DNA of 64,000 nt. Source: Bacteroidota bacterium. GTDB taxonomy: Bacteria > Bacteroidota > Ignavibacteria > UBA10030 > UBA6906. Of this stretch, positions 37,461-57,022 are shown piece after piece. The stretch is from contig DATJPR010000205.1 of NCBI GenBank assembly GCA_035506295.1, forward strand, positions 5,053 through 69,052, read 5' to 3'. The notes under the pieces were generated by a model that worked only from the letters and a program-made list of their open reading frames with translations, did no database searches and was not told where the DNA came from. A program made the position numbers and the translations under genes. The stretch's first letter is position 1; every line of letters starts with the position of its first letter.

Positions 37461-37470
37461 TCACGCGAAA

Positions 37471-37508: not shown

Positions 37509-37551
37509 TCCCTGGCTGCACGCGACCGACAGGGTCGCGGAACGATCGTCG

Positions 37552-39003
37552 CTAATGCACAACGCCGGTGATGGTGGCCGTCAACGGGTTGACCGCGTTG
37601 GGACCGCTCACCGTGATCGCGATGTTGACCGGCGTGCCGGCGGCGTCAACAATCCCCCACGAACCATCCTGGACGATCATCGAGAACTGCGTGAGGCCCG
37701 GTCCCTTGGACCGTGTATCGGGCAGCGTGACCCGTCCCTGGTCCCCGAAGATCAGGAAGACTTTGTTTTGTTCCACCCCGTCCATCGGTGGAGGCGGAAT
37801 GGTGGCGACGACGTTGATGGATGTTCCGGCCGCCAGCGGATTGCCGTTGATATCGTCGACAGTGAAGTTGATCGTCGTGGAACCGGCGTTGGGAATGCTG
37901 AACGTCGCCGGACTGATATTCTCGATGATTGCCCCGCCGCTCCAGACGATCAGCAGGCTGTCCTGCACCGCGACCCCATTTTGACCGAGGGTCCTGGCGA
38001 CCACCCAATGGAAGCCATTCCCGAACACCGGATCGGCGTTCGACCCCATGGGAAGCGGGTTGCCGCTGATAAGATCCACCGTTCCCTGGCCATCCTGCGT
38101 CGTGATCGCGCCGGACACCGTGCCCTGGATGACACCGGCTGTCGTTCGGAAATAGACCGCGGACGGTGAAGAAGGATTGCTGTACTTGTCCCCCACGATC
38201 ACGGAAATCTGGTCGCGCATGCCTGCGATGCCGAGCGCCGGGAAATTGAATTCCACGGCGGCAATCGTGAAGTGGGCCTGGTCCGGGAACCCTCCATGTA
38301 CCACCAGTCGCACCGGAGAAGACTGGATCGTCTTCGTGCCGGATACCACCGTCGCCAGGATCTCCACCACGCCGGCCCGTGTGCCCGAATTGAACGTCAC
38401 CGCAGCTGAGCCCGTAGCGTCGGTTTGGATTGTTGTCGGTGAAATGTACTCGCCGCCGCCCAGCGGCGTGACGATGCTGAGATTGATCGTCGCAGGGCTG
38501 AAGGCATCCATGGGATTCCCCAGGCTGTCGCGCACCTGCCAGCTCAGCACCGAAGTCTCTTTGCCGCCGACGCCGCTCACCGACAGCTCCGGGGGAGCGG
38601 CGCTGAGGAACGCGATCATCTGCGGCGTGCCGGTCCCTCCACTGACGGACTGGATCGAGCTCATGAGGACGTTCAGTTTTGTCGTCGAACCCTCGAACAC
38701 CTGAAGCGTCATCGTGGTGTCCCGATATCTGTCGCGGCTCATCGTGATGGTGACCGTGGCGATACTGTCGACGGTGAACTTCACGGTGTAAGCGCCGCTG
38801 GCATCGGTGGTCACCGACGGCGGGCTGGCGAAGTTACCGCTGACCGCGACGGATACACCTTCCAACGCGAGTCCGGACGTTTTGTCTTTGACCGTGCCGG
38901 AAATCGCCCCTTCACCGGCTGCCGGCGCCGTCGTGTCATTGCTGCACGACCACACTCCCATCGCCACCATGACGAGAAGCGGAACAAGAATACGATTTTT
39001 CAT
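37552..39003 (-). CDS. Lipoprotein with carboxypeptidase-regulatory-like and Ig-like beta-sandwich domains; co-oriented directly downstream of the secretin
   Basis: ATG at 39003 verified (MKNRILVPLLVMVAMGVWSCS lipobox). 'ISGTVKDKTSGLALEGVSVAVSG' is a CarboxypepD_reg-like motif. Several Ig-like repeats follow. Confidence 0.55.
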   Translation of the reverse strand: MKNRILVPLLVMVAMGVWSCSNDTTAPAAGEGAISGTVKDKTSGLALEGVSVAVSGNFASPPSVTTDASGAYTVKFTVDSIATVTITMSRDRYRDTTMTLQVFEGSTTKLNVLMSSIQSVSGGTGTPQMIAFLSAAPPELSVSGVGGKETSVLSWQVRDSLGNPMDAFSPATINLSIVTPLGGGEYISPTTIQTDATGSAAVTFNSGTRAGVVEILATVVSGTKTIQSSPVRLVVHGGFPDQAHFTIAAVEFNFPALGIAGMRDQISVIVGDKYSNPSSPSAVYFRTTAGVIQGTVSGAITTQDGQGTVDLISGNPLPMGSNADPVFGNGFHWVVARTLGQNGVAVQDSLLIVWSGGAIIENISPATFSIPNAGSTTINFTVDDINGNPLAAGTSINVVATIPPPPMDGVEQNKVFLIFGDQGRVTLPDTRSKGPGLTQFSMIVQDGSWGIVDAAGTPVNIAITVSGPNAVNPLTATITGVVH

Positions 39004-39034
39004 ACTATCCGTCCTTTCCATTCCTCGATCATCG

Positions 39035-40282
39035 TTAGCGTTGAGGTGTATTGTCGGGGATGATATGCTGCTCCATCCGCTCTTGTTCGCGCAGCCAGCG
39101 GTCGAAGATGCCGTCCTCCTTCTTCTTCTGGGCGATCCGTTCCTGGATCGTCGGCACAAGCTCCGCCTTCATGAGAATGATCAGCTCTTTCTTGTCGACC
39201 TCGTTCTTGTCATACCCGAAAACATACCGCAAGCCGAGCACATACCACGGCAGGTCCTTCAGGAACGGAACGCCGGTACGGACCGTGATGGTCTGATCGC
39301 TGTACAATCCCCCGATGATGCTTTCCTCCCCGTCGAGCAGGAGCAAATTGGTGTTCGCCCGGGTGCGGTTGACGATTGTGCTGATGGCCCCCGGCGTGAC
39401 ATCGCTACGCTCCACTTCTACTCTCAAATGGATGAAACTGACGCCTTGTTCCGTGATCACCTGGGGTTTGACGGTGATGATGGTTCCTGCGCTGTAGAAC
39501 TTGTCAATCAGGTTTCCCGCAAAGTCGCGTTCCCTGATGGAGAAGTCCTGGCCGACCTGAATTCTCCCTTCTTCGCCGGACCGGACGACCACCTGCGGAC
39601 CCGACAGAATTTCCCCGAGGTTATAGTTGGAGAAGATCTTCGCCAGGAAATCGATGTTGGCGAAGCTGACTCTCGGCGTCACGGATGTCTGAAACATGTT
39701 GTCGGAGACCTTGTCCGCCCCGCCGAAGCTCGAGGACACGGATACGTTGTTGGAGCTCTTCATGAAATTCCAGTTGAGGCCGACCTCATCCATTTTGGTG
39801 AGATTGACTTCCAGGAAATAGGCGTAGATCTTCACCTCCCTGCTGCTGAGGTTTGCAGGCTCTTCGTGGAAGCCGACCTTCCCCGTGGGCGCCTGCCCTT
39901 CAGCGTTCCCCTTCGCTTCGGTCGACGTCGAGATGATCTGAATATAGTCGTCGTATTCGTTGTACCACAGGTCGTTTTTCTTGCAGATCGCCTCCAGCGC
40001 GTCGCGCCACTGCATCCCCTGAATATCCAGCTTGATGGGGAAGGTGTGATGATCGGCGTCAATCACGATCTTGCCGGTGAACCGCTTGCTCACTTCGCTG
40101 ATAATCAGCAGCGCACGGTCAAACGGTGTCGTCGGCGCAATCGACACCAGCTCCTGCGGCGACGTGTACTGACGCAGCTGGCGCCGTTCCGCCTGACTTC
40201 CTCCCTGAACCTGTGCGAACGTCGGTCCCGCACAAATGACCATCAATGCCACGACGAAGAAAAATGACGTTTTCATGTCCAC
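39035..40282 (-). CDS. Type IV pilus / T2SS-family secretin (PilQ-like), short form of 415 aa
   Basis: Signal peptide, one N-domain, and a C-terminal secretin domain ('IIGGLYSDQTITVRTGVPFLKDLPWYVLGLRYVFGYD'). Confidence 0.8.
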   Translation of the reverse strand: MDMKTSFFFVVALMVICAGPTFAQVQGGSQAERRQLRQYTSPQELVSIAPTTPFDRALLIISEVSKRFTGKIVIDADHHTFPIKLDIQGMQWRDALEAICKKNDLWYNEYDDYIQIISTSTEAKGNAEGQAPTGKVGFHEEPANLSSREVKIYAYFLEVNLTKMDEVGLNWNFMKSSNNVSVSSSFGGADKVSDNMFQTSVTPRVSFANIDFLAKIFSNYNLGEILSGPQVVVRSGEEGRIQVGQDFSIRERDFAGNLIDKFYSAGTIITVKPQVITEQGVSFIHLRVEVERSDVTPGAISTIVNRTRANTNLLLLDGEESIIGGLYSDQTITVRTGVPFLKDLPWYVLGLRYVFGYDKNEVDKKELIILMKAELVPTIQERIAQKKKEDGIFDRWLREQERMEQHIIPDNTPQR

Positions 40283-40303
40283 CTCGATGTCGGTTTGTTT
40301 CTC

Positions 40304-41188
40304 TTAATTCTGCACGGGACCAAAGTTGATGCTCAATTCCACCTTGTTGATGATCCCCCCCTTGTTCAGCGTGCATTCCACCTTGCCATTCTGGGGATCA
40401 ATGCGGGTGACGTATCCGAGATACACTTCGTCGCCTTCCTGCAACGTGCGGATGGACTTCGTCTGGTCTTCGACGAACGCCTTCCCGGGGATGACAGCCT
40501 TCAACGATGACCGTTCGATCTCCACCAACGACCGCACGTTCGGCGGGATCCCGCTCGAGATGCCCGGCATGAACGGATCGACGTACAGCGGGTTCGGCGT
40601 GAGATCGCGGTCGATCAGCGAGCTCGAAAGCTCCGCTACCGTCGAATAGTAGGCCTGCACTGACATGTCAAACGTGACAAGCACCTCCCCCGCTTTCTTG
40701 TCGGTCGGCGCAACCTCGACACCCCGGAGCGTCAGCTGGCTCACCTTGTAGAGCCGCCTGCCGTTTTCGAGGTACCAGAGGAAGCGATAGAAATTGTCAA
40801 ACGTGCCCTCTCCCTTGAGCGAATACGAATTGAAGCCGAAGTTCCCTTTGTTCTGGTTGCCGGCGTATGCCATATCGAGGCGGATCGGGCCACTGATGTC
40901 GATCAGATGGCTGAAGTAGGAATAGCTCTCGGCCGTCGCATCGCTGGCGGGGATGATTTTGTTCCTCGCGCTCCACCGCTTCTGCGTGTCATTCAACGTC
41001 GTGCTCAGATCATTGAATTGATTGACGAGGTTCGGCGTGTTCTGGAGCTCGTCGTCGATCTTCTTGATCGTTGCCTGGATCTGCTTGATCTTCCGCGGTT
41101 GATTGAATGCCCGGATATAGGTCCCGACGGCGACGATCAGGAACAGCAGGATCCCGAGGGCAATGCTGTTTCGGATTTTGTACGACAC
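40304..41188 (-). CDS. Type IV pilus assembly protein; PilO-like N-terminal part fused to a PilP-like C-terminal domain
   Basis: N-terminal TM, coiled coil and ferredoxin-like core ('FDNFYRFLWYLENGRRLYKVSQLTL'). C-terminal approximately 90 aa form a beta-sandwich with a PilP-like pattern ('GDEVYLGYVTRIDPQNGKVECTLNKGGIINKVEL'). Confidence 0.55.
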   Translation of the reverse strand: MSYKIRNSIALGILLFLIVAVGTYIRAFNQPRKIKQIQATIKKIDDELQNTPNLVNQFNDLSTTLNDTQKRWSARNKIIPASDATAESYSYFSHLIDISGPIRLDMAYAGNQNKGNFGFNSYSLKGEGTFDNFYRFLWYLENGRRLYKVSQLTLRGVEVAPTDKKAGEVLVTFDMSVQAYYSTVAELSSSLIDRDLTPNPLYVDPFMPGISSGIPPNVRSLVEIERSSLKAVIPGKAFVEDQTKSIRTLQEGDEVYLGYVTRIDPQNGKVECTLNKGGIINKVELSINFGPVQN

Positions 41189-41213
41189 GGGTTAGTCTCC
41201 TTATACTGTTCCT

Positions 41214-42788
41214 CTATTGACCCGCAGGACCCGCGGGAACTTCAACGGAATAATGGAACACTTCCTGGTCCCGGATTGCCTGGACGGTGACCTCTTTCAG
41301 GACCGCGTTATCGAACAGGCCGGTGAACCGCGGGATGCGCATCCGGTACTGGGCGAACCCGGTCAGCCCGATGTTGGCATCCTTGCCGGCGTTCACTTCC
41401 ACCACCCAGATTGAATTAATGTCTTCCACGCCATGGCTCAGACGCGTGAGGACCCGGCTCCACCGCTCGCTCCCTGGGACCAGCGAATCATACAGCGCGA
41501 GCGACGTCTTGTATTTCCCCAACTGGCCCTGCAACGATTCGATGGAGTTCGCCAGCTGCAGGTTTTCGGCCTGCTGGCTCTCCTTTAGCGTGAGCGACTC
41601 CCGCATCTCGCGCAGGTCCCTCGACTTCGAAGAGACTTGCCATGTGAAGAACAACGTCGAAGCAAACAACAGCATCAACAGCAGATAGCCGTGCCACGCC
41701 AGTTTGAATACCCGTTGCCCTTCCCGTACGACATCCGGCAACAGGTTCACGTGATAAAAGGCCTTGTTGTTCTGTTCGAGGGTCCGCCATGCGGCGCCGA
41801 TCGGAACGGCGAAGGCCGAGATTTCGGCCTGCTGCTCCGGCGGGAGCGGCGAGCTGTCGACCAGCGGCATCAGGAGATAATCGATCTCCTGGCCCGGCAG
41901 CTGCTGCAGCAGGAAGTCCTTGAAATCGATCCTGTGGCTCTCCCCTGCGAGCACGATCCGGTTGATCCGCGGGATCCCCAGATTGTCCTGCTCCAGAAGC
42001 AGCCTGCTGTACACCGTGTTGTGCAGGTTCGGTGAGTCGTATCCTTCGCCGAGGATCGGGGCGAACTGGTAGAAGTTCGCGCCGCGCATGAAGATCAAGC
42101 GCGTGTATTCGACCCCGACATAGATGATGACGGTGACCTCGTTCGGGCTCAGCTCGTAGTTGCGACGGACAACGTTCATCAACGACACGTCGGCGCTGTC
42201 GATCCCTGCAATCAGCGGCATGCGGCCGCCGAGGAAGTTCTTGATGCCTTCGAGCGAGTTGATGAGGCTCAGGCCGTCTTCCCGGACAATCGTGAGCAGG
42301 CCGCCTTCGTCGGTCTCGATCGTGTCGACGGCGTCGATCGCGGGCTGGAAAGCGCGGATATTGCGCAGCTCCTCCAGGATCCTCTGCTTCAACTTGAGCC
42401 CTTTCAAGCCGAAGTTGCTTTCGACACCATGATAGTAGATGGCAGGCTCAGCCAGACTGTAGATCAGCGAGTACTTGCTCACCGGGTACGATGCCAGCAG
42501 ACTCAACAGCACCGAGTCATTGTCATCGCTGTGCATCTCCGTGGTGGGACCCTCGGTCACGGGCAGCGATTGGAGCGAAAACCCGTCCGATCCGTCCAGC
42601 CCGGCCGACGCCCCGAGGTCCACGCTTTTGTGCTCCGCCATCTTGGTGGCAAGCGTTGCCGTGCGAAGCTCTTCGACAACCACCCTTTTCCCCCGGAGGG
42701 AGAGATGGGCCAGCTTGATATCGAGACCATCGACAAATAGTCCGATGACGCTGTTTTTACGACCTTTCATTTTCGCCATGCGTTTCAC
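41214..42788 (-). CDS. Type IV pilus assembly PilM (actin-like ATPase fold) fused to PilN (TM plus coiled coil plus periplasmic domain)
   Basis: About 350-aa PilM-like N-terminal region, a TM helix (HGYLLLMLLFASTLFFTWQV), then a PilN-like region. The track start is GTG; an in-frame ATG (MAKMKGRK) lies 9 nt downstream. Confidence 0.7.
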   Translation of the reverse strand: MKRMAKMKGRKNSVIGLFVDGLDIKLAHLSLRGKRVVVEELRTATLATKMAEHKSVDLGASAGLDGSDGFSLQSLPVTEGPTTEMHSDDNDSVLLSLLASYPVSKYSLIYSLAEPAIYYHGVESNFGLKGLKLKQRILEELRNIRAFQPAIDAVDTIETDEGGLLTIVREDGLSLINSLEGIKNFLGGRMPLIAGIDSADVSLMNVVRRNYELSPNEVTVIIYVGVEYTRLIFMRGANFYQFAPILGEGYDSPNLHNTVYSRLLLEQDNLGIPRINRIVLAGESHRIDFKDFLLQQLPGQEIDYLLMPLVDSSPLPPEQQAEISAFAVPIGAAWRTLEQNNKAFYHVNLLPDVVREGQRVFKLAWHGYLLLMLLFASTLFFTWQVSSKSRDLREMRESLTLKESQQAENLQLANSIESLQGQLGKYKTSLALYDSLVPGSERWSRVLTRLSHGVEDINSIWVVEVNAGKDANIGLTGFAQYRMRIPRFTGLFDNAVLKEVTVQAIRDQEVFHYSVEVPAGPAGQ

Positions 42789-42824
42789 CTTGATCTATCG
42801 TGGAACCCTGTAGCACCCCGGGGG

Positions 42825-44060
42825 TCAGTCTGCGGCGTTCCCCGGCATATTCAGGATCTGCTGGAGGCGCCTCTTATTGTTTGCCGACACCATCGCGTTT
42901 TCCAGCGAGATCTTCTTCCCGAAGTAGAGCCGTTTCAGATCCTGCTCCAGCGTGATCATCCCGAGATCGGATGACTCCGCCATCATCTGGTAGATTTCGC
43001 CTGTGTTGTTGTTTTTGATCGCCGCCCGGACAGACGGTGTCATCACCATGATTTCCTTCGCGAGGATCCGCTTGCCGTCGAGGCTCGGGACAAGTTTCTG
43101 AGACATGACGCAGCTGAGGGTGTCCGCCAGCCGCAGCCGAACGCGCTCCTGCTCGATCGGCGGCATTTCGCCGATGATCCTGTCCACTGTTTCCACGGCC
43201 GACCCCGTGTGCAGCGTTGAGAACACCTTGTGACCGCTATCGGTGATTTCGAGCGCGGTCATGATCGTATCCGGATCGCGCATTTCTCCGATGACGATGA
43301 TATCGGGGTCCTGGCGCAGCGCCTGGACAGCGCCATCCTTGAACGAGAGGACATCGCGGCCCACCTCGCGGTGTCGGATGATGCAGCGATCCGGCTTGTG
43401 CACATATTCGACCGGCGAGGCGATGATGATGACATGGCCGTCGACCGTGTGGTTGTTCGCATCGATGATGCTGTCGAGCGTCGTACTCTTGCCGGAGCCG
43501 GTGATCCCCGTGATCAACGTCAGACCCTGCTCGGTGTAGGCCAGGCTGAGAACCTTGGTGACATTCGCGTGCAGATCGAGATTCTTATAGGGACGGATGA
43601 CGTTGTTGATCGCGCGCATGTTGAGCGCGAGGTGGTCCAGATCGAAGGCTGCGTTGGCGCGGAAACGAAACATCGTATCGCCTTCAACGATGCTGTAGGA
43701 GAAATCGAGGTTGCGGTTCTCGTACAGGAAGAGGCGCTGGCGCTCGATCAGGATCGCCTGGATCAGCACGTTGAATTCGTCGAGCGTGAACTGACCGAGG
43801 TCCCGCGTAGGCTTTTTGTCTCCGAAAACGCGATACCAGATCCAACCGGCACACCCGTACCCGCCGATATCGATGTCCGACGCATTCACATGTGCCATGT
43901 TCCGGAGGTAACTGTCCATCAACATCCGGAGCGTCGTTCGCTCGGCGGGGGAAAGCTTGGCCACGAGGTCTCCGATCAGCATCTGTCGCTCCATGCCGGG
44001 GATAGAATCGGGGACCGTCGATGCGATCTCTCTCAAAACCTTTATGGCGGTCTGAATCAT
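42825..44060 (-). CDS. PilT/PilU-family type IV pilus retraction ATPase
   Basis: Walker A 'GITGSGKSTT', Asp box, Walker B 'IIVIGEMRD', His box 'TLHTGSA' and the PilT C-terminal region. ATG verified. Confidence 0.85.
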   Translation of the reverse strand: MIQTAIKVLREIASTVPDSIPGMERQMLIGDLVAKLSPAERTTLRMLMDSYLRNMAHVNASDIDIGGYGCAGWIWYRVFGDKKPTRDLGQFTLDEFNVLIQAILIERQRLFLYENRNLDFSYSIVEGDTMFRFRANAAFDLDHLALNMRAINNVIRPYKNLDLHANVTKVLSLAYTEQGLTLITGITGSGKSTTLDSIIDANNHTVDGHVIIIASPVEYVHKPDRCIIRHREVGRDVLSFKDGAVQALRQDPDIIVIGEMRDPDTIMTALEITDSGHKVFSTLHTGSAVETVDRIIGEMPPIEQERVRLRLADTLSCVMSQKLVPSLDGKRILAKEIMVMTPSVRAAIKNNNTGEIYQMMAESSDLGMITLEQDLKRLYFGKKISLENAMVSANNKRRLQQILNMPGNAAD

Positions 44061-44306
44061 CTCTCTTTCAAGTTTAGTCTGGGACCGGTTGCCGTCACGT
44101 CGTTCCGGCGGGGATATACTCCGGCGTAGTAATGCAGGACAAGAGCTGTGCCACCTGTCACATCGTGGAAAACTGCTCTATTCACAACGAATCAACGAGG
44201 TTGCACCGGAGGGGAGAGAGGGGGGTGATGACTATTCGCCAAAGTACCGAAGTTGTTCACTGCGAAAATGAAGCGGGATGGGGATTTATCTCTCTTTCGT
44301 GGGAGA

Positions 44307-44340
44307 AACAGAATGCCCCGGGGACATCGATCGTGTGCCG
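44307..44340 (-). terminator. Candidate terminator hairpin downstream of the pilin/pilB/pilC transcription unit
   Basis: Perfect 10-bp inverted repeat CCCCGGGGAC/GTCCCCGGGG with a 14-nt loop, about 50 nt past the TAG of the gene ending at 44393. On the minus strand it is followed by CAUUCUGUUUCU. A 12-bp palindrome CAGAGATCTCTG lies adjacent at approximately 44358-44369. Confidence 0.45.
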
Positions 44341-44392
44341 TCCCCGGGGCGGATTATCAGAGATCTCTGGCCCTGCTTCGGTGAGTCCAGAT

Positions 44393-45646
44393 CTACTCGT
44401 ACCAGGCCAGAATCTCGTAGGTTTTCGTCGTCGGATAGAATGGGGGAGACCGTGTCCGGAGACGTTCATCGTAGATAATCCGAACGGAGAGTCCGTGGGA
44501 AATCCCTGAGTCCGTCGTCGCCGCCAAATCCTGTACCGTCCAGCCGCCGAGTGTGGTGAGAATCCCGAGGGGGCGGGTTGTGAGGTTTTCAATCTTCACC
44601 GTGGAGGTGTCACTGAACAGCGAGGCCATGACCGTCACGTTGTTCCCGTTGGTGGTATGATGGTCCATGATCGTGATGTCACTGTTCGCCACGATGCCGA
44701 GCATGTCGGTAGACGCTGGATTCGTTCGCGGATCCGAATCGTACGTGATATTGTTCTCGATGTCGATTTTGCCGCGACTGGGGCTCGTGGTGTCGACTGC
44801 CCCGACGGTGTATTGCCCCTTGACCACCCCCTGAATGTGGATGACGCCGGTGCTGTTTTTCAATACGATGGCGCCGTTCGGTGCAAAGGCGGAGGCAAGC
44901 ATCGTGGTATCCGGCGCGGCGGCAGCCCCCTGATGATACTTGATGGAGTCTCCCGCAAATTTCAGGTAGACATCATTGTTCCCTGAAAAAGTCTTCCCTC
45001 CTGTCGCTGCTTTGCCGATCAATGTAGAAAAATCCTTGTTGATGGGAACGCTGACCCCATCTTCCTCGCCAGCATTAAAAATAGGATGTCCCGACCACGA
45101 TGTGCTGTCCACGCCCTTCCATGTTGTGACTTTTCCACCGAAATACGGCGTACCGTGCGTTGTGAGGGTGCCCTGGACATGCACGGGTCCACCAAGCGTG
45201 GAGTCGCCCGTTGCCCAATATACCGCCGCCGCCGAGGTTCCCGCGTACAGAGCAAACTTCGAGAAACTGCTGGGACGAAGGATGACCCTGACAGTGGACG
45301 TGCTGTCCCGGTACGTGCTCGTGCAGCGCATCGTGAGCCGGCGTTCGCCGGTGAGCGGGTCAACGCTCGACGTTGAATCCACCGATGCGGTGAACGTGCC
45401 TCCGTCGAAGGAGATGGGCGAGGTGTAACCGTCCCACCACGGGTTCCCGTTCATCTTCGGCGGATTCAGAAAGATGAAGTTGGCCGCGATGTTCGCGCCC
45501 GATATGGCGATATTTCGGGCGATCGCTCCCTCGTAGTAGTCCATGGCGTTGTCATACGCCTGCACGCTCGTGTCGGAAAGGTCCTTTCCCGTCCGAAGAA
45601 AGAGGAGGATTGTTCCAATGACAAGAATGAGCGCAGATTTCCCCAT
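44393..45646 (-). CDS. Pilin-like protein, 417 aa (PilX-like minor pilin or pilus-tip candidate); 'MG' class N-terminus
   Basis: ATG verified; an in-frame TAA lies 6 codons upstream; SD AGAGGGA. N-terminus MGKSALILVIGTILLFL. 'AYDNAMDYYEGAIARNIAISGANIAANF' resembles a PilX_N helix. Sits inside the pilus cluster. Confidence 0.4.
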   Translation of the reverse strand: MGKSALILVIGTILLFLRTGKDLSDTSVQAYDNAMDYYEGAIARNIAISGANIAANFIFLNPPKMNGNPWWDGYTSPISFDGGTFTASVDSTSSVDPLTGERRLTMRCTSTYRDSTSTVRVILRPSSFSKFALYAGTSAAAVYWATGDSTLGGPVHVQGTLTTHGTPYFGGKVTTWKGVDSTSWSGHPIFNAGEEDGVSVPINKDFSTLIGKAATGGKTFSGNNDVYLKFAGDSIKYHQGAAAAPDTTMLASAFAPNGAIVLKNSTGVIHIQGVVKGQYTVGAVDTTSPSRGKIDIENNITYDSDPRTNPASTDMLGIVANSDITIMDHHTTNGNNVTVMASLFSDTSTVKIENLTTRPLGILTTLGGWTVQDLAATTDSGISHGLSVRIIYDERLRTRSPPFYPTTKTYEILAWYE

Positions 45647-45657
45647 AAGATTCCCTC

Positions 45658-46299
45658 TTACCTGTTACTGTAATTTCGCGTCGACATCCGCATCTGCTGC
45701 CAGAATGCCGAGGAATATTGCGTGTTGAGCGGCGCCGTCTCCGAAATCGTTGAGGCGTACACGTTCTCGACACTCAGCGTGATCTGGATCGTTTGAATCC
45801 TTTGGAGGTTTGTTGCAGAAACCGGCGTCGGAATCTGATTCCCCGAGGCGTCGTAGTATTTGAGCTTGAATGAGGTTATTCCGAGGTTCGCACCCTTCGC
45901 CGGGACGACGTTCACTTTGCGGTAGAGAAATCTGTCTCTCGGATTCGGCGTCATCGAAAGCTCGCTCGCCGGACCGAGATAGTAGTAGATGCTGTCGATG
46001 TTTCCGTCCGGCCCGCCGTTGTCGGCAACGTCTGTCAGGAATTTGATCGAACTGGTGTCGGCGGCAAGGATCGCCTTCGTGGGGTCGGGCAGGTTGTTCG
46101 GCTCATTACAGAAGCCGATCTTTCGGAAATCATATTCGAGCAACCGCGTGACCTCCACAAGGTTCTCCTGGACGAGGAGATCCCCTTTCAGCGTCTGGAT
46201 ATTCTCGCTGTTGGCAACATTCCCCTGGAGCGTCATCAGGAAAAGCCACCCGAACACCACGATGGATCCGATGATATCCATGATTGTTTGACTGCCCAT
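45658..46299 (-). CDS. Minor pilin-like protein, 213 aa; 'MG' class N-terminus
   Basis: ATG verified; in-frame TAG 4 codons upstream; SD AGAGGGA. N-terminus MGSQTIMDIIGSIVVFGWLFLMTLQ, then a beta-rich C-terminal domain. Confidence 0.4.
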   Translation of the reverse strand: MGSQTIMDIIGSIVVFGWLFLMTLQGNVANSENIQTLKGDLLVQENLVEVTRLLEYDFRKIGFCNEPNNLPDPTKAILAADTSSIKFLTDVADNGGPDGNIDSIYYYLGPASELSMTPNPRDRFLYRKVNVVPAKGANLGITSFKLKYYDASGNQIPTPVSATNLQRIQTIQITLSVENVYASTISETAPLNTQYSSAFWQQMRMSTRNYSNR

Positions 46300-46308
46300 G
46301 GCATCCCT

Positions 46309-46833
46309 CTATCGAAAGTACCAATAACTATACACAGTCTGGTACGACACGGTATCGTTCATGCTCGGACTCGTGACCCACACTGTGAGACGTTTATGAT
46401 ACGTCTTCACCGATGACGTATCGATCGTGCTCGTCCCGAGGTTCAGGTTTACGTACTGGACTTTCACCTTGATGAGAAAATTCGCCGTGGGAAGCGCGAG
46501 CGTGTCGCCCGAGACCGTCTTCTGGAATCCGTTGTAGTCGTCTATGTCGTTGAACTTTGCATCAGAACCCGGGGTAGTTCCTTCCGTCCCATCAGGGCCG
46601 AGGGTGGTGCTCAGGTCATTGGGTGTGTAGACGTCGCCGGTGATCGTATGCTGATCGAAGGAAAGGGACGTCGCCTTCTCGACGATAGACGTCGCAAGCG
46701 ATGAAGCGACGATTTCCCACTCCGCGCTCTCAATAGCCTGGCGCTGGTCCAGCGTGTTCCTGTTGTTCGTCAGGAACAGCGACCCCAGCAGCGCAAGGGC
46801 GAGAATGGTAAGCAGGGTCTGGCCGGTCCCCAT
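46309..46833 (-). CDS. Minor pilin-like protein, 174 aa; 'MG' class N-terminus
   Basis: ATG verified; in-frame stop TGA 6 codons upstream; SD AGGAGGG. N-terminus MGTGQTLLTILALALLGSLFL. Confidence 0.4.
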   Translation of the reverse strand: MGTGQTLLTILALALLGSLFLTNNRNTLDQRQAIESAEWEIVASSLATSIVEKATSLSFDQHTITGDVYTPNDLSTTLGPDGTEGTTPGSDAKFNDIDDYNGFQKTVSGDTLALPTANFLIKVKVQYVNLNLGTSTIDTSSVKTYHKRLTVWVTSPSMNDTVSYQTVYSYWYFR

Positions 46834-46848
46834 GAGATTCCCTCCTGA

Positions 46849-48639
46849 TCAGTCGTCGGTTGTCGCCGAAGCAATTTCTTCGAGCGTGGTAGTTCCTTCG
46901 AGCATGCGTTCGATCCCAGCCCGCCTGAGCGTCCACATGCCGTCCTTCATCGCCTGCTGACGTACCGCCTCTTCATCGACTTCCTTCCCTGAACGGATGA
47001 TCAGAGTGCGGATCTCCTTCGTGAAGTAAAGCGCCTCGTGGATTGCCGCCCTCCCCTTGTACCCGCCGTTGCATTTGTCGCACCCGGCCGCTCCGTAGAA
47101 GGTGTGTGAATCGAGGTCTTCCTTTGTCAGGCCGAACTTGAGGTACGAGTCCCGGTCGAGCTCTTCCGGCGGGATCGGCCGTTTACAGGCCTTGCACAGA
47201 GTTCTGATCAAGCGCTGTGCCACGATAATATTGATCGCATACGCAATCAGGAAGGGCTCGATCCCCATTTTGTACAAACGGGATACCGCACTTGGCGCAT
47301 CATTGGTATGAAGTGTGGAGAATGTCAGGTGACCGGTATTTGCCAGCTTGATGGCAATCTCGGCCGTTATCTTGTCGCGCATTTCTCCCACCAGCACGAT
47401 ATCGGGGTCGTGTCGCAGGATGCCCCTGATCGCGTCGTCGAAACTCATCTTCGGGCCGATCTTCAGCTGACGCGCGCCCCTGATGATGTACTCGACCGGA
47501 TCCTCGACCGTCAGAACGTTGACCGACGGATCGATCACCTGATGCAGAGCGGCGACGAGGGTCGTGCTTTTGCCGCTTCCGGTCGGACCGGTCAGGATCA
47601 CGATGCCCTGCGGCTTGGCGATCGCCTTGTCGAAGAACTCGCGCGCCGGTCCACCCAATCCCAACTTGTTCAGGTCGGTGATGACTTTCCGGTCGTCGAG
47701 AACGCGGATGACGATGCTTTCGAATTTGTGTCGGAACTCCACGCCGACCATCGGCAGGATGGAGACGCGGAACCGGATCATGTGATCGTCGATCGAGCGC
47801 TGGATGAACCCGTCCTGTGCCGCCTCGCGTTCGAACCGGTCGACATTTTTCGACCGGTCTTTGACGACGGCGGCGACGGCCTCCGGCATCGTGCGTTCCT
47901 GCACATGCCAGAGACGGAGCGCTCCATCGATCCGGAACCAGAACTCGGTCCGGTTTCCTTCCTTCGCGGTGATGTGAATGTCGCTTGCGCCCTGCCGGAC
48001 AGCCTCCACCAGCGCGCCTTCGACAAGGTTAATGAGCGCGCTCTTGGTGATTTCCGCTTCGAGCGCTTCCTCGTCGACGTTCCCTTCGTCGTCCTCCTTG
48101 ACCTGGATACCGACATCGGACGATTCGAGCTGTTTGAGGAACTCGTTCTCCGGAGGAACAACCTGCTCGATGAGCGCCTGGACTTCCTTCATCCGACAGT
48201 AGGCGACCTCGTACTTCTTGGCGCCGAAGTTCCGGGCGATCAGCGGGATCTGACGGTCCGTCGGGTCCGCCGCGACAATGATCAGCTTGTCCGGCTGCTT
48301 TTCGTCGAACCGCAGCGGCAGCATGCGCGTCTGCGTCAGCATGTCGCGGACGTTCTGCGGCAGGGCCTCGATATACCGGCGGATGAAGTCGATCCGTGTC
48401 TGATCGATCTTCTCGTCGGCGAGGTAGATCTCGCGGAACGCGTACAGGTCGGCCACTTCGCGGAACACCGCATCGTGGTCTGCGTTGAAATCATTGACAA
48501 GAATCTGCCCGAGATTCCGCCGGTTCTTTTTCTCCTCCGAATCCTTGACGCGCAGGGATTTCTCGAGCGTCTCGTAGTCGATGATCCCCTTCTTCAGGAG
48601 AGCGAAACCGATTTTGTCTGTTATGTCCAGATTTGCCAT
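46849..48639 (-). CDS. pilB: Type IV pilus assembly ATPase PilB (GspE family) with N-terminal T2SSE_N domains
   Basis: Walker A 'GPTGSGKSTT', Asp boxes, Walker B, His box, and a tetracysteine motif (CKAC...C...CDKC). Confidence 0.9.
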   Translation of the reverse strand: MANLDITDKIGFALLKKGIIDYETLEKSLRVKDSEEKKNRRNLGQILVNDFNADHDAVFREVADLYAFREIYLADEKIDQTRIDFIRRYIEALPQNVRDMLTQTRMLPLRFDEKQPDKLIIVAADPTDRQIPLIARNFGAKKYEVAYCRMKEVQALIEQVVPPENEFLKQLESSDVGIQVKEDDEGNVDEEALEAEITKSALINLVEGALVEAVRQGASDIHITAKEGNRTEFWFRIDGALRLWHVQERTMPEAVAAVVKDRSKNVDRFEREAAQDGFIQRSIDDHMIRFRVSILPMVGVEFRHKFESIVIRVLDDRKVITDLNKLGLGGPAREFFDKAIAKPQGIVILTGPTGSGKSTTLVAALHQVIDPSVNVLTVEDPVEYIIRGARQLKIGPKMSFDDAIRGILRHDPDIVLVGEMRDKITAEIAIKLANTGHLTFSTLHTNDAPSAVSRLYKMGIEPFLIAYAINIIVAQRLIRTLCKACKRPIPPEELDRDSYLKFGLTKEDLDSHTFYGAAGCDKCNGGYKGRAAIHEALYFTKEIRTLIIRSGKEVDEEAVRQQAMKDGMWTLRRAGIERMLEGTTTLEEIASATTDD

Positions 48640-48686
48640 GAGATCATGTGCTCATGTGGGGGAAGCCGAACCCGGAAGACGACGCC

Positions 48687-50072
48687 CTACGTGAGTCGCA
48701 CGTCTTCGTGCACGCGCACGACCGGCGTCAGCGCCCCCATCCCGGGGTTCTTGGGCCGGATCGTCGCGGTCTCGGATGAGACGATGGTCAGGGCCGTCAA
48801 CACGATCATAATCACCATCGAGATCATGAGTTGAATGAAATCGATGGCGTTCCGCATCTTGTACGTCGTCTCCTTCTCATAATATTCCGCAAGCTGCAGG
48901 GCGGTGTTCTTCACCGTACCGGTTTCGGCGCCCGAATGGAACCGGGAAATCGCTGTCTTCGTGAAGACGCCCGTGGCTTCAAACGCCTCCGTGATGCCGG
49001 CGCCTTTCTCGATCATCAAGGGAATCGCGATGGACTTGATGCGGCTCTCCATGAACTTGTTCCCGCAGGCCTCGGAAGCCAGACGGATGACTTCGATGTT
49101 CTCTCCCGCGCCCGAGTACAGGGCGTAGAACACGCGGCAGAAAATCTCGATCGACTGTTTGTGCATCAAATTGCCGATGACGGGGACGTTCCACAAATAC
49201 CGGTCGAGGATGAATCGCCCCTTCTCCGTGGTAAAGAACCGCACCAGAAGCACGGTGGGGATGAGGATCATGAAACAGATGATCACAATATGCGCCGTGA
49301 GAAAGTCGCTGATCGCCAGCGTCGCTTTGGTCATCGGCGGCAGATCGATGCCGAACTTGCGGAACAATCCCGCTGTCGCGGGGAAGATGTATCCTACGTA
49401 ATAGACCACGGCGCCGAACAGCACGAACAGGGTGACAATCGGCGTGATCAACGCGGATTTCAAATTCTTTCTGAACTCTGTCTGGCGTTCCAGGAAACGC
49501 GCGGTGCTGTCGTAGATCTCCGCCATGTTACCGCTTTTGGAGGCCAGACCGAGCATGTGCGCGGTGAAGCGGCCGAGCACGCTCTCGTGCTTGATGAAGG
49601 CCTTTTCACTGTCCTTCCCCTGCTTCAGCTCGGTATTGATGTCCTTGATGGATTCCCGCAGCGTCCGGTTCTCGATGTCGTTGACCAGCAGCTGCATGAT
49701 TTCGTTGAACGGCAGCTTCTGCCTGATCAGGTCGGCGCTGACGCGGACGAACGTGACGATCTCCGCCGCCGGCGGCTTCATCTTGAAATCGATGAAGCGC
49801 TTCTGGACGGAAAGTACCCGGTATCCCATTTTCACCAGGGCCTCCTGCACCTCGGCCTTGGTGAACGCTTTTTGTTCTCCCGTGAAGGGTTTCTCCGTTC
49901 CCCTCTGCACCCTGTAGAGGAACGTCGACCGTCGGAGGATCTGCACGAGCTTGAATTTCCTCTGCACGGCGAGCTGCTGCGCCTTCTTCCTGGCCTGTCG
50001 GCCGTTTTCCGCTTCGATCACGCCCTGGACGGGCTTCCCTGCAAGCGAAATACCTTCGATCCTGTATTCCAT
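48687..50072 (-). CDS. pilC: Type IV pilus platform protein PilC (GspF family)
   Basis: Two T2SSF domains with 3 TM segments. ATG at 50072 verified (MEYRIEGISL). The track ORF extends to 50168. Confidence 0.85.
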   Translation of the reverse strand: MEYRIEGISLAGKPVQGVIEAENGRQARKKAQQLAVQRKFKLVQILRRSTFLYRVQRGTEKPFTGEQKAFTKAEVQEALVKMGYRVLSVQKRFIDFKMKPPAAEIVTFVRVSADLIRQKLPFNEIMQLLVNDIENRTLRESIKDINTELKQGKDSEKAFIKHESVLGRFTAHMLGLASKSGNMAEIYDSTARFLERQTEFRKNLKSALITPIVTLFVLFGAVVYYVGYIFPATAGLFRKFGIDLPPMTKATLAISDFLTAHIVIICFMILIPTVLLVRFFTTEKGRFILDRYLWNVPVIGNLMHKQSIEIFCRVFYALYSGAGENIEVIRLASEACGNKFMESRIKSIAIPLMIEKGAGITEAFEATGVFTKTAISRFHSGAETGTVKNTALQLAEYYEKETTYKMRNAIDFIQLMISMVIMIVLTALTIVSSETATIRPKNPGMGALTPVVRVHEDVRLT

Positions 50073-50249
50073 GAGCTCTTTCCGTCTGAGTGGTAAACAC
50101 ATTGATGAAACGCGCACAGGGCGGCACCCGACGATTACGCGGCCTTTCGCTTCGGCCGGATCCCCCACCCAGCCGAACGGTCGCCCATCGATCGCAGTGC
50201 CCCCCTGTTGTGCTGTACATCGTCCGGCCTGCTGCCAGGCCGCAAGTGC

Positions 50250-50657
50250 CTAGTGTCCTTCTGCTTCCACCGTGAACATGCTGTCCGGCATTACCTGCAT
50301 GACCACCTTGACGTGCTGCCCATCGTCCGCAACTTCGGTCCCAATCCCGGTGATCTTGACGAAGGACGTGCCTCCCGGAACGGGATCCGGATCGAGGGAG
50401 TAACTGCCGTTCAGATTGTTCACCCGGCTTGTGAGCTTCTGCATTGTCAGCCCAGAGAATGATCCACCGCCGCCACCAAGGGTTGTCGGCCTGCGAAAAT
50501 ACGTCTGAGCTCGTACCCCGAGCTGCGCAAGATCCATTTCCAGCTCATCGCGATTGCTCGACGCCGCTTGGTCGCGGAACATCGTCACACCGACGGCAAC
50601 AGCGACGGCCAGGACGACGGCAGCAATGGCGATGATTAACAACTGTTGGTTACCCAT
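50250..50657 (-). CDS. Major-pilin-like protein (135 aa), noncanonical 'MG-NQQLL' N-terminus
   Basis: ATG verified; in-frame TGA 2 codons upstream. N-terminus MGNQQLLIIAIAAVVLAVAVAVGVTMF, then NRDxxxxDLxxLxxRAQxYFRRPTxLGGGG. Located immediately upstream of pilC/pilB, as pilA normally is. Confidence 0.55.
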   Translation of the reverse strand: MGNQQLLIIAIAAVVLAVAVAVGVTMFRDQAASSNRDELEMDLAQLGVRAQTYFRRPTTLGGGGGSFSGLTMQKLTSRVNNLNGSYSLDPDPVPGGTSFVKITGIGTEVADDGQHVKVVMQVMPDSMFTVEAEGH

Positions 50658-50686
50658 GGATCATGACCTCAGCGTGAAACATCGGA

Positions 50687-50711
50687 CGGGCCTCCGGCTC
50701 CGGAGACCCGC
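50687..50711 (-). promoter_or_regulatory. Intergenic stem-loop between the two tandem pilin paralogs (possible attenuator or processing site)
   Basis: GGGTCTCCGG-AGC-CGGAGGCCC: a 10-bp stem (one G-U pair) with a 3-nt loop in the 66-nt spacer. No U-tract follows. Coordinates +/-2. Confidence 0.35.
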
Positions 50712-50723
50712 CTTCCAGTTCAG

Positions 50724-51143
50724 TTAGTGGACGACCACAAGGCTGTCCGGCCGACCCGCGTCGCGGCAGAAGATCTGCTGCGTCACTTTGTTGCCGTCAG
50801 GGGCGGTTTCCGTCCCGATACCCTGGATCGTTACCTGGTTCGCCGTACCGGCCGTGGTAATCGTGTACGTGCCGTTCGCATTTGCACCGCCCGGCATGTT
50901 CGTCAGCTTGGAAAGACCAGCCGCATCAGCAGTCAGTCCGACGAAGCTGTTGCCGCCACCGCCCAAAGCCGTCGGGCGACGATAGAACTGCTGCGCACGC
51001 GCAGCGAGGTTGACCAGGTCGTTCGACACCGCGTCGCGGTTCGCATTGACGGCGTTGTCCGAAAACATGGTGATACCAACGGCGACCGCAATACCGACCA
51101 CGATCACGCCGAGGATGATGAGCAGAAGTTGTTGCTGTCCCAT
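50724..51143 (-). CDS. Major-pilin-like protein (139 aa), paralog with an 'MG-QQQLL' N-terminus
   Basis: ATG verified; AGGAG SD 7 nt upstream; in-frame TAG 4 codons upstream. N-terminus MGQQQLLLIILGVIVVGIAVAVGITMF. Shares 'NRDxxxxDLxxLAxRAQxYxRRPTxLGGGG' with its paralog. Confidence 0.55.
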   Translation of the reverse strand: MGQQQLLLIILGVIVVGIAVAVGITMFSDNAVNANRDAVSNDLVNLAARAQQFYRRPTALGGGGNSFVGLTADAAGLSKLTNMPGGANANGTYTITTAGTANQVTIQGIGTETAPDGNKVTQQIFCRDAGRPDSLVVVH

Positions 51144-51418
51144 AACGCACTCCTATGAATTGATGATTGATGATGTTGCTGGATGTAGAGGAATATTGTT
51201 GTATTGTCGCGCTTCGCTCATGAACTCTGAAATCCATATTTCAAGACCTGTGCCACGGCCCTCGAGAATGCTGCAGGTCACACTGACCTTGAAATTTCTG
51301 CGATTCGCGTCAATACTCGCAGAATATGTCCTCGTTGGGGGTAAATTTTTCCGATGAAGTTTTTTCTTCTCGGCGCATCCCGCCCATGCTGACATGGGAA
51401 AAGGGCTCAAGAAAAAGG

Positions 51419-53233
51419 CTAGGTCAACACCGACCAGACTTCTTCCAGCGTTGTCAAGCCTGCTTTCACTATATCTGCGGCCGCCTCGACGAGAGTGCTT
51501 CCTCCATTTGCGCGCACGGCCGCCCGGAGTTCATCCTCCTCTGACGATCCTCCCTTGAGAATAAGCTCCTGCACCTGCGAGATCACCGGGAGGGTCTCGT
51601 GCAGCGGGACCCGGCCGTCGAACCCTTGCCGGCACTCGGAACAACCGACATTCTTGTAGAGGGGCACGCCCGGCATTTGCATTCCCAGTCGTGCAAGCCG
51701 GTCTGTTTCCGCAGTGGAGACGGTCTTGCATTTCGGACAGAGCCGGCGAACCAGGCGTTGTGCGTGGATCACCGAGAGCCCGCGAGACATCAGATACGGG
51801 TCAACGCCCATCGTCTGCAGCCAGACGACCGCGCCAGCGGTATCGCGCGCGGACATCGTGGCAAAGATCTGGCGCCCTTCAAGCGACAGGCGGAGCGCGC
51901 GGGTCGCCACGTCTCGATCCGTGAGTTCTCCAATTAACATGATGTCCGCGTCGGTCCGATCGAGCATGTCGAGCGAACCGGACTTGCTGAATTTCTGCGT
52001 CCGCCGGACGTGCGAGACGCCCTCGATCATCCACGAAGAAGCGCCCTCGAGAGCGATCGCGCGGACGTTAGCCGCCATCGCGAGACGCACGAGCATCGCG
52101 ATCGTGGTCGATCTTCCCGAACCGGAAGGGCCCGTGATCAGGAACAACCCTGTGTGGCGGAAGAGATATTCACGGAAGGCGGCGGCGGAAGGTTCGGGCA
52201 TGCCCAAACCCTCGAGCGAATAGAGAGCTTCGGGTTCCTGGTTCACCTCCACGACAACCGCCTCGAACTTCCCCGGATGGTCACGCAACGCCACCGGCAC
52301 GGAGGTGACGCGAAGGTGCACGGACCGGCCGTCGATATTCTTGCCGATGTGACCTTCCTGTGCGGCGAGGCGTTCATACCGGTCCATCCCCGGCGTACGC
52401 GCCTTCACTGCGGCGGCAACGGCCTCCGCACGAACCTCATCGATGGACATCCAGTGCGACAACGCGCCGTTGACGCGGAATTCCACGTCGGTCCTGCGCA
52501 CCGTCCTCGGGATCAAATGCACCGCTGTCGCGCCGGCCTTGATCGCTTCGTTCAGGATCTTCTCGAACAGCGGGGCGAGTTGTGCGCGCGCGATCTCGCG
52601 ATCCAGGATGGCATCGAGGTCAGGCTCGATGATCTCCGGCGGGACATCGGTGATGACCTGCGCCTGCTTCTGCGGAACTTTGTCCGTGGACATCGACTTG
52701 TACAGCTCATCCCATTCCCGTTCCTTCATGTAACAGATTTCGAATTTCTTGAAGGGGAACGTCCGGGCGACTTCCGTCACTTCCCGATCTGAAGGATTCG
52801 GCGTCACAATGACGAGCTTGTCGGCCTGGCTGTCGACGATGTCATACGGAAGGATCTTATGGCGCAACGCGATCGTCCGGACCGATTCCGGCAGCCCTCG
52901 AAGAAGCTTCATCACATCGGCGATGGTGAGCTTTCGGGGCGACCGGTCGTTGAGGTCGATGGTGCGGAACGCGTAGAACTGGGCGATTTGATATTGCAGC
53001 ACGTCGCGGGGAACTTTGAATTCTTCCTGGAGGATCTCAGTGACGCTTCGACGGTCGGCCGGGTTCTGCTGCTTCAGAGCGATCGCTTTTTGTGCCACGT
53101 CCGCGTGAACGATGGCGTTGCGGACGAGATGGTCGAGAAACGAGGCCATGAACGGCCTGGCACCGTTTCCGCCTGTCTTCGCGCTCCGTTCGTCCACTCC
53201 CTTCCCGACTACCGAGTTATCCATATTCGGCAT
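51419..53233 (-). CDS. Second GspE/PilB-family secretion ATPase (paralog of pilB)
   Basis: T2SSE_N repeats, Walker A 'GPSGSGRSTT', and a C-terminal tetracysteine (CPKC...CSEC). Confidence 0.85.
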   Translation of the reverse strand: MPNMDNSVVGKGVDERSAKTGGNGARPFMASFLDHLVRNAIVHADVAQKAIALKQQNPADRRSVTEILQEEFKVPRDVLQYQIAQFYAFRTIDLNDRSPRKLTIADVMKLLRGLPESVRTIALRHKILPYDIVDSQADKLVIVTPNPSDREVTEVARTFPFKKFEICYMKEREWDELYKSMSTDKVPQKQAQVITDVPPEIIEPDLDAILDREIARAQLAPLFEKILNEAIKAGATAVHLIPRTVRRTDVEFRVNGALSHWMSIDEVRAEAVAAAVKARTPGMDRYERLAAQEGHIGKNIDGRSVHLRVTSVPVALRDHPGKFEAVVVEVNQEPEALYSLEGLGMPEPSAAAFREYLFRHTGLFLITGPSGSGRSTTIAMLVRLAMAANVRAIALEGASSWMIEGVSHVRRTQKFSKSGSLDMLDRTDADIMLIGELTDRDVATRALRLSLEGRQIFATMSARDTAGAVVWLQTMGVDPYLMSRGLSVIHAQRLVRRLCPKCKTVSTAETDRLARLGMQMPGVPLYKNVGCSECRQGFDGRVPLHETLPVISQVQELILKGGSSEEDELRAAVRANGGSTLVEAAADIVKAGLTTLEEVWSVLT

Positions 53234-53280
53234 TCAAGTCTCCTCAAACCGCGAGGTGGTTCCAACAACGCTTGTGACTC

Positions 53281-53661
53281 TCATGTTGACTGCATCCGCG
53301 CCGTACGTTCAAGGGAGTCGAGAAGTCTGAGGATCGTGTCCACAGGCGTTGTCTTCGAGAAAAAGAAATCCTTGTCGGGTTCGACGATGAGCGAACGCGT
53401 TCGTTCGTCATCGTACCCCGAGATAAAGATGAACGGAATGTCGGTCTTCTGACTGAATTCCCGGACGTAGCTGTGGAACCGCGCGCCATCGAGCGTGGGC
53501 ATGAAGACGTCCGACATAATGACATCGATCTTCTCCTCCTCAAGCAGCTCGCGAGCGACTTTGCCGTCCGTCGCGACTACTACGGCATGACCGGCATCCC
53601 GCAGGACATCTCCCATGACGTTCAGAAAGCCGCTTTCGTCATCCACCAGCAGTATTCGCAT
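53281..53661 (-). CDS. Single-domain response regulator (CheY-like receiver)
   Basis: 'RILLVDDE', 'IDVIMSDVFMP' (phospho-Asp), conserved T/S and K positions. 48 nt upstream of the second PilB-like ATPase. Confidence 0.8.
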   Translation of the reverse strand: MRILLVDDESGFLNVMGDVLRDAGHAVVVATDGKVARELLEEEKIDVIMSDVFMPTLDGARFHSYVREFSQKTDIPFIFISGYDDERTRSLIVEPDKDFFFSKTTPVDTILRLLDSLERTARMQST

Positions 53662-57017: not shown

Positions 57018-57022
57018 TCTTC

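Follow-up and report, generated by a model that had tools for sequence, protein, structure and literature searches.

A type IVa-like pilus gene cluster of uncultured Ignavibacteria with leaderless pilins that are probably assembled without a prepilin peptidase

Here we analyze a type IV pilus gene cluster in a 64-kb stretch of contig DATJPR010000205.1 (hereafter the window), which comes from an uncultured soil member of the Ignavibacteria. The cluster is a row of open reading frames (ORFs) on the minus strand at ~37.5-53.7 kb. Together, our results suggest that it probably encodes a complete type IVa-like pilus machine of uncultured Ignavibacteria, whose pilins are assembled without a prepilin peptidase, and that the machine is probably a lineage-wide, undescribed and PilD-independent variant of the type IVa pilus (T4aP). 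The most unusual feature of the cluster is the leaderless pilins, not its fused assembly proteins. An initial annotation of the sequence had read the cluster, with its aberrant pilins, as a type IV filament variant that is lineage-specific or incompletely described. This proposal agrees with the presence of the cluster in ~80 uncultured Ignavibacteria genomes, with the unconventional signal peptides and with the literature: a search of open-access papers turned up no description of leaderless type IV pilins or of this Ignavibacteria system. The two major pilin genes are:

50724-51143, minus strand: PilA1, the major pilin candidate, 139 aa, with a type IV pilin fold but without leader peptide and without Glu5
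50250-50657, minus strand: PilA2, the second pilin paralogue, 135 aa (MGNQQLL...), 52% identical to PilA1 and kept in most loci

A class III signal peptide consists of a hydrophilic leader of 6-26 aa that ends in Gly and is followed by a hydrophobic stretch with Glu5 (PMC4471445). The major pilins do not conform to this pattern: they start with MGQQQLLL and have neither a charged leader nor Glu5. For the first pilin gene, an AGGAG ribosome-binding site precedes the ATG by 7 nt and an in-frame TAG lies four codons upstream, and thus PilA1 must begin MGQQQLLLIILGVIVVGIAVAVGITMF. The MG start is found in 100 of the 101 pilin ORFs of related loci, and an upstream extension is possible in only 4 of them. 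The 27-residue N-terminus is almost invariant among homologues, and not one of the 118 full-length database homologues carries D, E, K or R within these first 27 residues. An exhaustive profile search returned 1,883 pilin-family clusters at 50% identity; among the best 150 of these, 113 start with MG and 84 with MGQQQ, and no classical G↓FTLIE start occurs among the non-MG starts listed from them. Likewise, neither the window nor any of the 82 related loci scanned contains a classical G↓FTLIE prepilin motif.

The predicted fold marks the major pilins as genuine type IV pilins. In a confident AlphaFold2 model from 110 sequences, with a predicted local distance difference test (pLDDT) score of 90.4, an N-terminal helix of 54 residues leads into a sheet of four strands, and the top Foldseek match is full-length PAK pilin (TM 0.64). 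The globular domain of this pilin (NRDA..DL..LA.RAQ.YYRRP..GGGG.SF.GL) was also observed, in the set of P0268, P0296, P0309, P0241 and P0299, behind ordinary Sec or lipoprotein signal peptides and repeated in tandem three to five times in longer proteins, and it thus occurs outside pilins too.

No gene for a prepilin peptidase was detected near the pilins. Searches by tblastn with Acinetobacter baumannii PilD and by phmmer with PilD and Escherichia coli GspO returned nothing at E up to 10 in the stop-to-stop ORFs of the window and of 82 related loci, and no Peptidase_A24 domain is found among the Pfam-annotated genes of ~10 kb past the right end and ~7 kb past the left end of the window. The absence of PilD, which had been claimed for the cluster, therefore extends to the contig flanks and the related loci. 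Melioribacter roseus has been reported to lack pilD, and its pilus gene set was judged probably incomplete (PMC3534657).

The remaining features of the cluster, in the order of the minus strand, are:

53281-53661, minus strand: REC, a single-domain response regulator and first gene of the cluster (Pfam Response_reg, 9.8e-18)
51419-53233, minus strand: PilB2, a degenerate PilB/GspE-family paralogue (T2SSE, 1.3e-57)
51241-51255, minus strand: a sigma-54-type -24/-12 element, TGGCAC-N5-TTGA, with the first pilin gene 112 nt downstream
48687-50072, minus strand: PilC/GspF platform protein, 461 aa from MEYRIEG (Pfam T2SSF in two stretches, 5.9e-29)
46849-48639, minus strand: PilB, the canonical extension ATPase with all catalytic motifs intact (T2SSE, 1.1e-98)
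46309-46833, minus strand: minor-pilin-like protein 1, 174 aa (MGTGQTLL...), with a conserved M-x-x-G-Q and hydrophobic stretch
45658-46299, minus strand: minor-pilin-like protein 2, 213 aa, with a conserved Asp8 in the N-terminal helix
44393-45646, minus strand: minor-pilin-like protein 3, 417 aa (MGKSALIL...), with a conserved N-terminal pattern (DUF4900, 1.4e-6, just under cut-off)
44315-44350, minus strand: a GC-rich terminator-like hairpin in the gap between the minor-pilin module and pilT, with a 12-bp stem and a U-rich tail (fold z-score -2.35)
42825-44060, minus strand: PilT retraction ATPase (NCBIfam TIGR01420, PilT/PilU family, 320.5 bits against a cut-off of 319.1)
41214-42788, minus strand: PilM-PilN fusion, 524 aa, with Foldseek matches to PilM, an invariant NLLP and a GspL-like architecture
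40304-41188, minus strand: putative PilO-PilP fusion, 294 aa, with weak GspM and IcmG/DotF matches and a DPFxP motif
39035-40282, minus strand: PilQ-type secretin, 415 aa (Pfam Secretin, 1.2e-26)
37552-39021, minus strand: lipoprotein with CarboxypepD_reg (1.7e-8) and Ig-like Big_1 (3.5e-13) domains
37467-37512, minus strand: a 20-bp terminator-like hairpin closing the cluster before uvrA (z-score -4.08; 0 of 200 shuffles fold as well)

The ORF positions given earlier for 39035-53661 and their minus-strand orientation match ours, and the Ig-domain lipoprotein sits just outside that range. Pfam or NCBIfam models back the identities of REC, PilB, PilB2, PilC, PilT and the secretin, and no Pfam family was matched by the five pilin-like ORFs or by the 524-aa and 294-aa proteins. 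The two terminators that had been claimed are both present as hairpins by folding energy. An excess of terminator-like sites across the region was also considered and dropped, as their count is no higher than in shuffled sequence; the two hairpins were kept on folding energy.

The motor genes resemble those of a T4aP. For PilB, the best NCBIfam model is that of type IV-A PilB (TIGR02538, 415.9 bits, against 375.5 for GspE), with the equivalog cut-off of 675 not reached, and its Walker A, Asp box, Walker B and His box are all canonical. PilC matches the NCBIfam models of Thermus-type PilC (2.5e-41) and GspF (3.1e-39), both under their equivalog cut-offs, and its homologues are 460-462 aa long. 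PilT exceeds the cut-off of its family and lies within the cluster. Residues 9-32 of PilB are KIGFALLKKGIIDYETLEKSL, a stretch that resembles the 24-residue MshEN cyclic di-GMP-binding motif used for comparison (RLGxxLLxxGLLxxxxLxxxLxxQ) and that gives E 0.03 with NCBIfam NF053729 and an under-cut-off score with Pfam MshEN (1.4e-4); the matching stretch of PilB2 is degenerate.

PilB2 is different. Its Walker A reads GPSGSGRST, with Lys replaced by Arg, its Asp box reads LEGASSW, and its His box reads GRQIFATMSARDT, with both His lost, although the Cys4 zinc motif is retained. Orthologues of PilB2 at the same position in other lineages have fully canonical motifs, and in a neighbour-joining tree the upstream paralogues form a clade sister to PilB, with the degenerate members on long branches. 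Since the Walker A Lys, the Asp box and the His box are lost, PilB2 is probably not a second extension motor, and in this genome it is most likely a pseudo-ATPase that would serve as a non-catalytic regulator or scaffold. Thus, the claim of two GspE-family extension ATPases plus one PilT holds for family membership and for PilT but not for a second extension motor. The acidic pocket and the phospho-acceptor Asp expected of a receiver domain are visible in the REC sequence itself, as DD at positions 7-8 and as the Asp of IMSDVFMP. An orthologue of REC stands upstream of the pilins in 13 related loci, with or without PilB2, whereas a distant clade has neither REC nor PilB2 and carries a hydantoinase-like gene before the pilins. 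REC and PilB2 are therefore an accessory module of one sub-clade, to which the window belongs. An 810-aa PAS-GAF-HisKA-HATPase-REC hybrid kinase (L087:7152-9584), encoded just past the end of the window and 8-10 kb from the cluster, might speculatively be a partner of this orphan REC.

Upstream of the first pilin gene, a TGGCA[CT]-N5/6-TTG[CA] element is found at a distance of 68-115 nt in ~32 loci, the window included, against a chance expectation of ~0.008 per upstream region. It is never found before the second pilin gene. In multi-pilin loci, the sigma-54 element precedes the first copy only.

The PilM-PilN fusion is real. The 524-aa protein, which is 100% identical to the database entry VMG09_13485 (a hypothetical protein of a Bacteroidota bacterium), begins with an actin-like part (~1-340); NLLP stands at 348-351, a membrane helix follows at ~366-386, and after a coiled coil comes an alpha-beta-beta-alpha-beta-beta domain (453-517). 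N348, L349, L350 and P351 are invariant and stand just before the membrane helix; NLLP is the hallmark N-terminal motif of PilN and compares with INFLPWR of E. coli HofN. The AlphaFold2 model, built from 19 sequences, is poor (pLDDT 55), so only the Foldseek ranking was used: the ten best matches in the PDB are all PilM (5eoy, 3jc8 and 2ych; 3.5e-6 to 4.7e-5), followed by FtsA and ParM. The NCBIfam model of the PilM-like Amuc_1101 matches residues 337-470 (2.3e-7), and JGI labels many of the homologues as PilN. A sequence-profile search of the alignment against the PDB gave nothing at E up to 1, and Pfam gave nothing either. The fusion that the initial annotation had read from the ORFs is hence supported by the PilM fold matches, the invariant NLLP, the membrane helix and the C-terminal topology. 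GspL of type II secretion systems (T2SS) is the orthologue of the PilMN complex (PMC4471445), and the fused state is normal in T2SS.

The 294-aa protein, whose gene is located between those of PilMN and the secretin, is a plausible candidate for a PilO-PilP fusion. It has a membrane helix (~9-27), a coiled coil, a GspM/PilO-like half, DPFxP at 203-208, which recalls the RDPF of PilP and HofP, and a small C-terminal beta domain. The NCBIfam GspM model matches residues 10-176 nearly end to end (7.5e-4), and the IcmG/DotF model matches residues 227-270 (1e-5); the DotF-like match recurs in 38 of 44 family members (best 4.9e-7). We also compared PilMN and PilOP by hhalign with HofM, HofN, HofO, HofP, GspC, GspL and GspM of E. 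coli and with Ralstonia PilMNOP-like proteins; the best match was the Ralstonia PilO-like protein (E 0.004, probability 8%), and as the references lack secondary structure and depth, this result neither supports nor refutes the assignment. The PilO-P fusion had been proposed together with PilM-N; its DotF-like domain, GspM match and DPFxP lend it weak support.

The secretin is of the PilQ type. Its profile finds T4aP PilQ best in the PDB (Myxococcus 3jc8, 3e-16, then Pseudomonas and Vibrio), with profile positions 50-125 aligned to residues 491-562 of Myxococcus PilQ and with Vibrio PilQ aligned from position 140. The STN (N0) model matches 7 of 39 family members (6.7e-6). The layout is N0/STN (~45-120), one ring domain (N1, ~147-215) and the secretin core, without AMIN domains, so that the secretin does not have only one N-domain, as had been thought, but N0 plus one ring domain. 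At 415 aa it is near E. coli HofQ (412 aa) in length, and it also weakly matches the NCBIfam model of the outer membrane protein Amuc_1098 (7.1e-11). When it was searched by tblastn against plasmid records, weak GspD matches were obtained and no reference PilMNOPQ locus was found.

Downstream of the secretin gene, the Ig-domain lipoprotein is encoded in 61 related loci (32-70% identity). Its constant position suggests that it is part of the machine, as a pilotin-like or surface component, and it may serve as a pilotin or accessory protein. A 472-aa TPR lipoprotein (61129-62547, minus strand), encoded 8-10 kb from the cluster, could, as a speculation, be a pilotin partner.

The N-termini of the minor-pilin-like proteins resemble those of the major pilins: protein 1 starts with M-x-x-G-Q followed by a hydrophobic stretch, protein 2 with MGSQTIMD or, in other loci, MSVMLD, and protein 3 with MG(K/R). 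A conserved acidic residue in the N-terminal helix is found in protein 2 alone (Asp8). By hhalign, protein 1 is weakly similar to the pilin family (E 8e-4) and to GspH (E 0.016), and protein 2 aligns with GspJ over 109 columns (E 0.004), below significance. Protein 3 is possibly a tip or adhesin subunit; a literature search on DUF4900 found nothing useful.

To analyze the distribution of the cluster, we scanned with the alignment of the 524-aa protein, taking one genome per species, and obtained 80 loci with 41-92% identity to the query. Every one of them comes from an uncultured genome that bears the label Ignavibacteria, Ignavibacteriota, Bacteroidota or Chlorobi, and the matches include no cultured or characterised organism. 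Mapping the window proteins onto the ORFs of related loci revealed a common order of pilins, PilC, PilB, usually three minor-pilin-like genes, PilT, the 524-aa protein, the 294-aa protein, the secretin, the Ig-domain lipoprotein and often uvrA. PilB is 71-95% identical across loci. The comparison of synteny that had been suggested for the cluster thus shows the same order in ~80 species-level genomes, and because this order is shared almost everywhere, the cluster is a conserved functional unit of the lineage rather than a chance arrangement or a remnant. An inactive remnant, in which the odd pilin starts would be decay or gene-calling artefacts, is accordingly very improbable: PilB2 is degenerate and the Ignavibacteria pilus gene set was earlier judged "probably not complete" (PMC3534657), but the ORFs are intact and kept in order, the pilin N-terminus and PilB are strongly conserved across species, and the ribosome-binding site and the sigma-54 promoter are conserved as well.

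Some parts of the locus vary. The minor-pilin-like trio (44393-46833 in the window) behaves as a movable cassette: it lies between PilB and PilT in the window and many loci, is inverted in two (L060 and L068), and is absent in at least eight (L079, L039, L045, L081, L013, L015, L058 and L061), where PilB is directly followed by PilT. The number of major-pilin paralogues ranges from one to four per locus (L052, L003, L011, L013, L030 and L060). On the downstream side, uvrA (34584-37460, minus strand) follows directly in the window and in ~40 related loci, a stable chromosomal context and not a mobile island. The GC content is flat across the window. The rest of the window is housekeeping in character (an RND efflux pump with its outer membrane factor, a MacB-type ABC transporter, a deoxyhypusine synthase homologue and Fur-FeoA-FeoB; 4214-9903, plus strand, 22948-26182, minus strand, and 55294-59445), and no second type IV filament system is present in the 64 kb.

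We propose the following model for the machine. The sigma-54 promoter would drive the first pilin gene, and the pilins would be translated in an assembly-ready form, with one to three polar residues (MG... or M-x-x-G-Q...) before the hydrophobic helix, so that peptidase cleavage and N-methylation would not be needed. PilB and PilC would polymerise the pilins and PilT would depolymerise them. The GspL-like PilM-PilN and the PilO-PilP-like fusion would link the motor to the PilQ-type secretin (N0-N1-secretin). In the sub-clade of the window, REC and the PilB paralogue would have been added upstream, and the paralogue, having lost its catalytic residues here, would act as a regulator or scaffold. 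From the gene set we infer PilD-independence, leaderless membrane insertion, the contacts between partners, the roles of PilB2 and REC, and a function of the pilus in adhesion or twitching.

Several observations weigh against this model. The whole system is known here from its genes alone. The negative result for the peptidase covers ~84 kb from this genome plus ~20 kb surrounding each of the related loci. The assignments of the three minor pilins are weak, and the 294-aa protein has no significant match to PilO or PilP in Pfam, in the PDB profile search or by hhalign. A profile of the distant clade was aimed at M. roseus and Ignavibacterium album, and all of the 120 matches listed are metagenome-assembled genomes; the M. 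roseus cluster is thus a possible homologue of this one at most. Finally, near-invariant glycines occur at position 2 of the major pilins and at position 4 of minor pilin 1, which recalls the essential Gly-1 of prepilins, and sub-threshold alignments to Geobacter PilA and GspG place residues 1-3, MG(Q), at positions -3 to -1, upstream of +1.

The near-invariant Gly and the alignment register make it possible that the pilins are short-leader prepilins (M-G↓ or M-x-x-G↓), which a PilD-type peptidase from elsewhere in the genome would cut behind the conserved Gly. Some systems can have shortened leaders, and the critical residue is Gly-1 (PMC4471445), and loci of the mannose-sensitive haemagglutinin (MSH) pilus borrow a peptidase from another system (PMC6668835). 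However, the window, its flanks and the 82 loci contain no peptidase, and no classical prepilin that would need one is present in the same sequence. The short "leader" has no charged residue and is well below the length of known bacterial leaders, many orthologues of minor pilin 2 start with MSVMLD and have no Gly to be cut after, Glu5 is missing in either register, and M. roseus is reported to lack pilD. We consider such short-leader prepilins unlikely, yet keep them as a serious alternative to assembly without a peptidase because Gly2 is so strongly conserved.

It is also conceivable, but rather improbable, that the cluster is a T2SS-like secretion system with a short periplasmic pseudopilus, like the Bacteroidetes "T2SS", which branches within T4aP (Denise et al.). 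The fused PilM-PilN has the architecture of GspL, and the weak match of the 294-aa protein to GspM points the same way. Against this, PilT scores above its family cut-off inside the cluster, PilB and the secretin match T4aP PilB and PilQ best, the pilin finds its closest structural matches among T4a pilins, and the Cytophaga-type cluster brings a peptidase of its own together with classical pseudopilins, with PilT unmentioned.

The most far-reaching form of our preferred reading is that the whole lineage builds a retractile type IV pilus from never-processed pilins, with no leader, prepilin peptidase, N-methylation or Glu5, and we hold it tentatively, at slightly less than even weight. If it is true, the core of four parts that counts as "universal" (class III prepilin, peptidase, ATPase and platform) is really one of three, and the leader-peptidase step is a regulatory add-on and not a mechanistic requirement. 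Reviews count processing by a dedicated peptidase and Glu5 among the few features common to nearly all bacterial type IV filaments; here, both appear to be lacking from a system that occurs in nature, is widespread (no fewer than 1,883 clusters of pilins at 50% identity) and shows strong conservation. It would allow a direct test of the roles of leader, peptidase and Glu5 in assembly timing, membrane extraction and charge neutralisation in the filament, and it is a minimal candidate for expressing a peptidase-free pilus in another host. Surveys that rely on the N_methyl motif or PilD will overlook this pilin family. Standard annotation would miss such pilins as well, which may explain why Ignavibacteria pilus sets have been called incomplete, and annotation models are needed for leaderless pilins, fused PilMN and fused PilOP.

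Among the known systems, the cluster is most readily compared with the T4aP of Pseudomonas, Myxococcus and Thermus, with which it shares PilB, PilC, PilT, a PilQ-type secretin with N0 and ring domain, PilM/PilN modules with NLLP, the fold of type IVa pilins and, ahead of the major pilin gene, a sigma-54 promoter. It differs from them in that the pilins have no leader or Glu5, PilD is absent in and near the locus, PilM-PilN and probably PilO-PilP are fused, the secretin has no AMIN domains, and an Ig-domain lipoprotein adjoins the secretin in place of a TPR pilotin. Identities are low, and A. baumannii PilC finds nothing by tblastn. T2SS has equivalents of the inner-membrane parts, with GspM corresponding to PilO and the HR domain of GspC to PilP (PMC4471445), and the likeness to it lies in the GspL-like PilM-PilN and the GspM match; in contrast to T2SS, PilT is present here, pilin and secretin are nearest to T4aP, and no GspO or classical pseudopilins were found.

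The "T2SS" of Cytophaga hutchinsonii (CHU_3191-3201) belongs to the same phylum-level group and is likewise highly divergent, with PilMNOP-like parts that are seen by HHpred only. It has, however, its own Peptidase_A24 (CHU_3197) and pseudopilins with classical N-termini, and no PilT has been reported. For its peptidase and classical pseudopilins, it was rejected as the known Bacteroidota equivalent, and it is thus not an already described locus of the same architecture with conventional pilins, a possibility that the initial annotation had raised. Akkermansia Amuc_1098-1102 gives weak matches through Amuc_1101 (608 aa) and Amuc_1098, which suggests a similar fused PilM-PilN; the scores are far under the family cut-offs, and the taxon is Verrucomicrobiota. 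MSH loci also do without a peptidase of their own, and archaeal pilins often lack Glu5 (PMC4471445), but the MSH pilins keep a normal leader and the archaeal pilins a cleaved class III signal peptide, unlike the pilins of the Ignavibacteria cluster.

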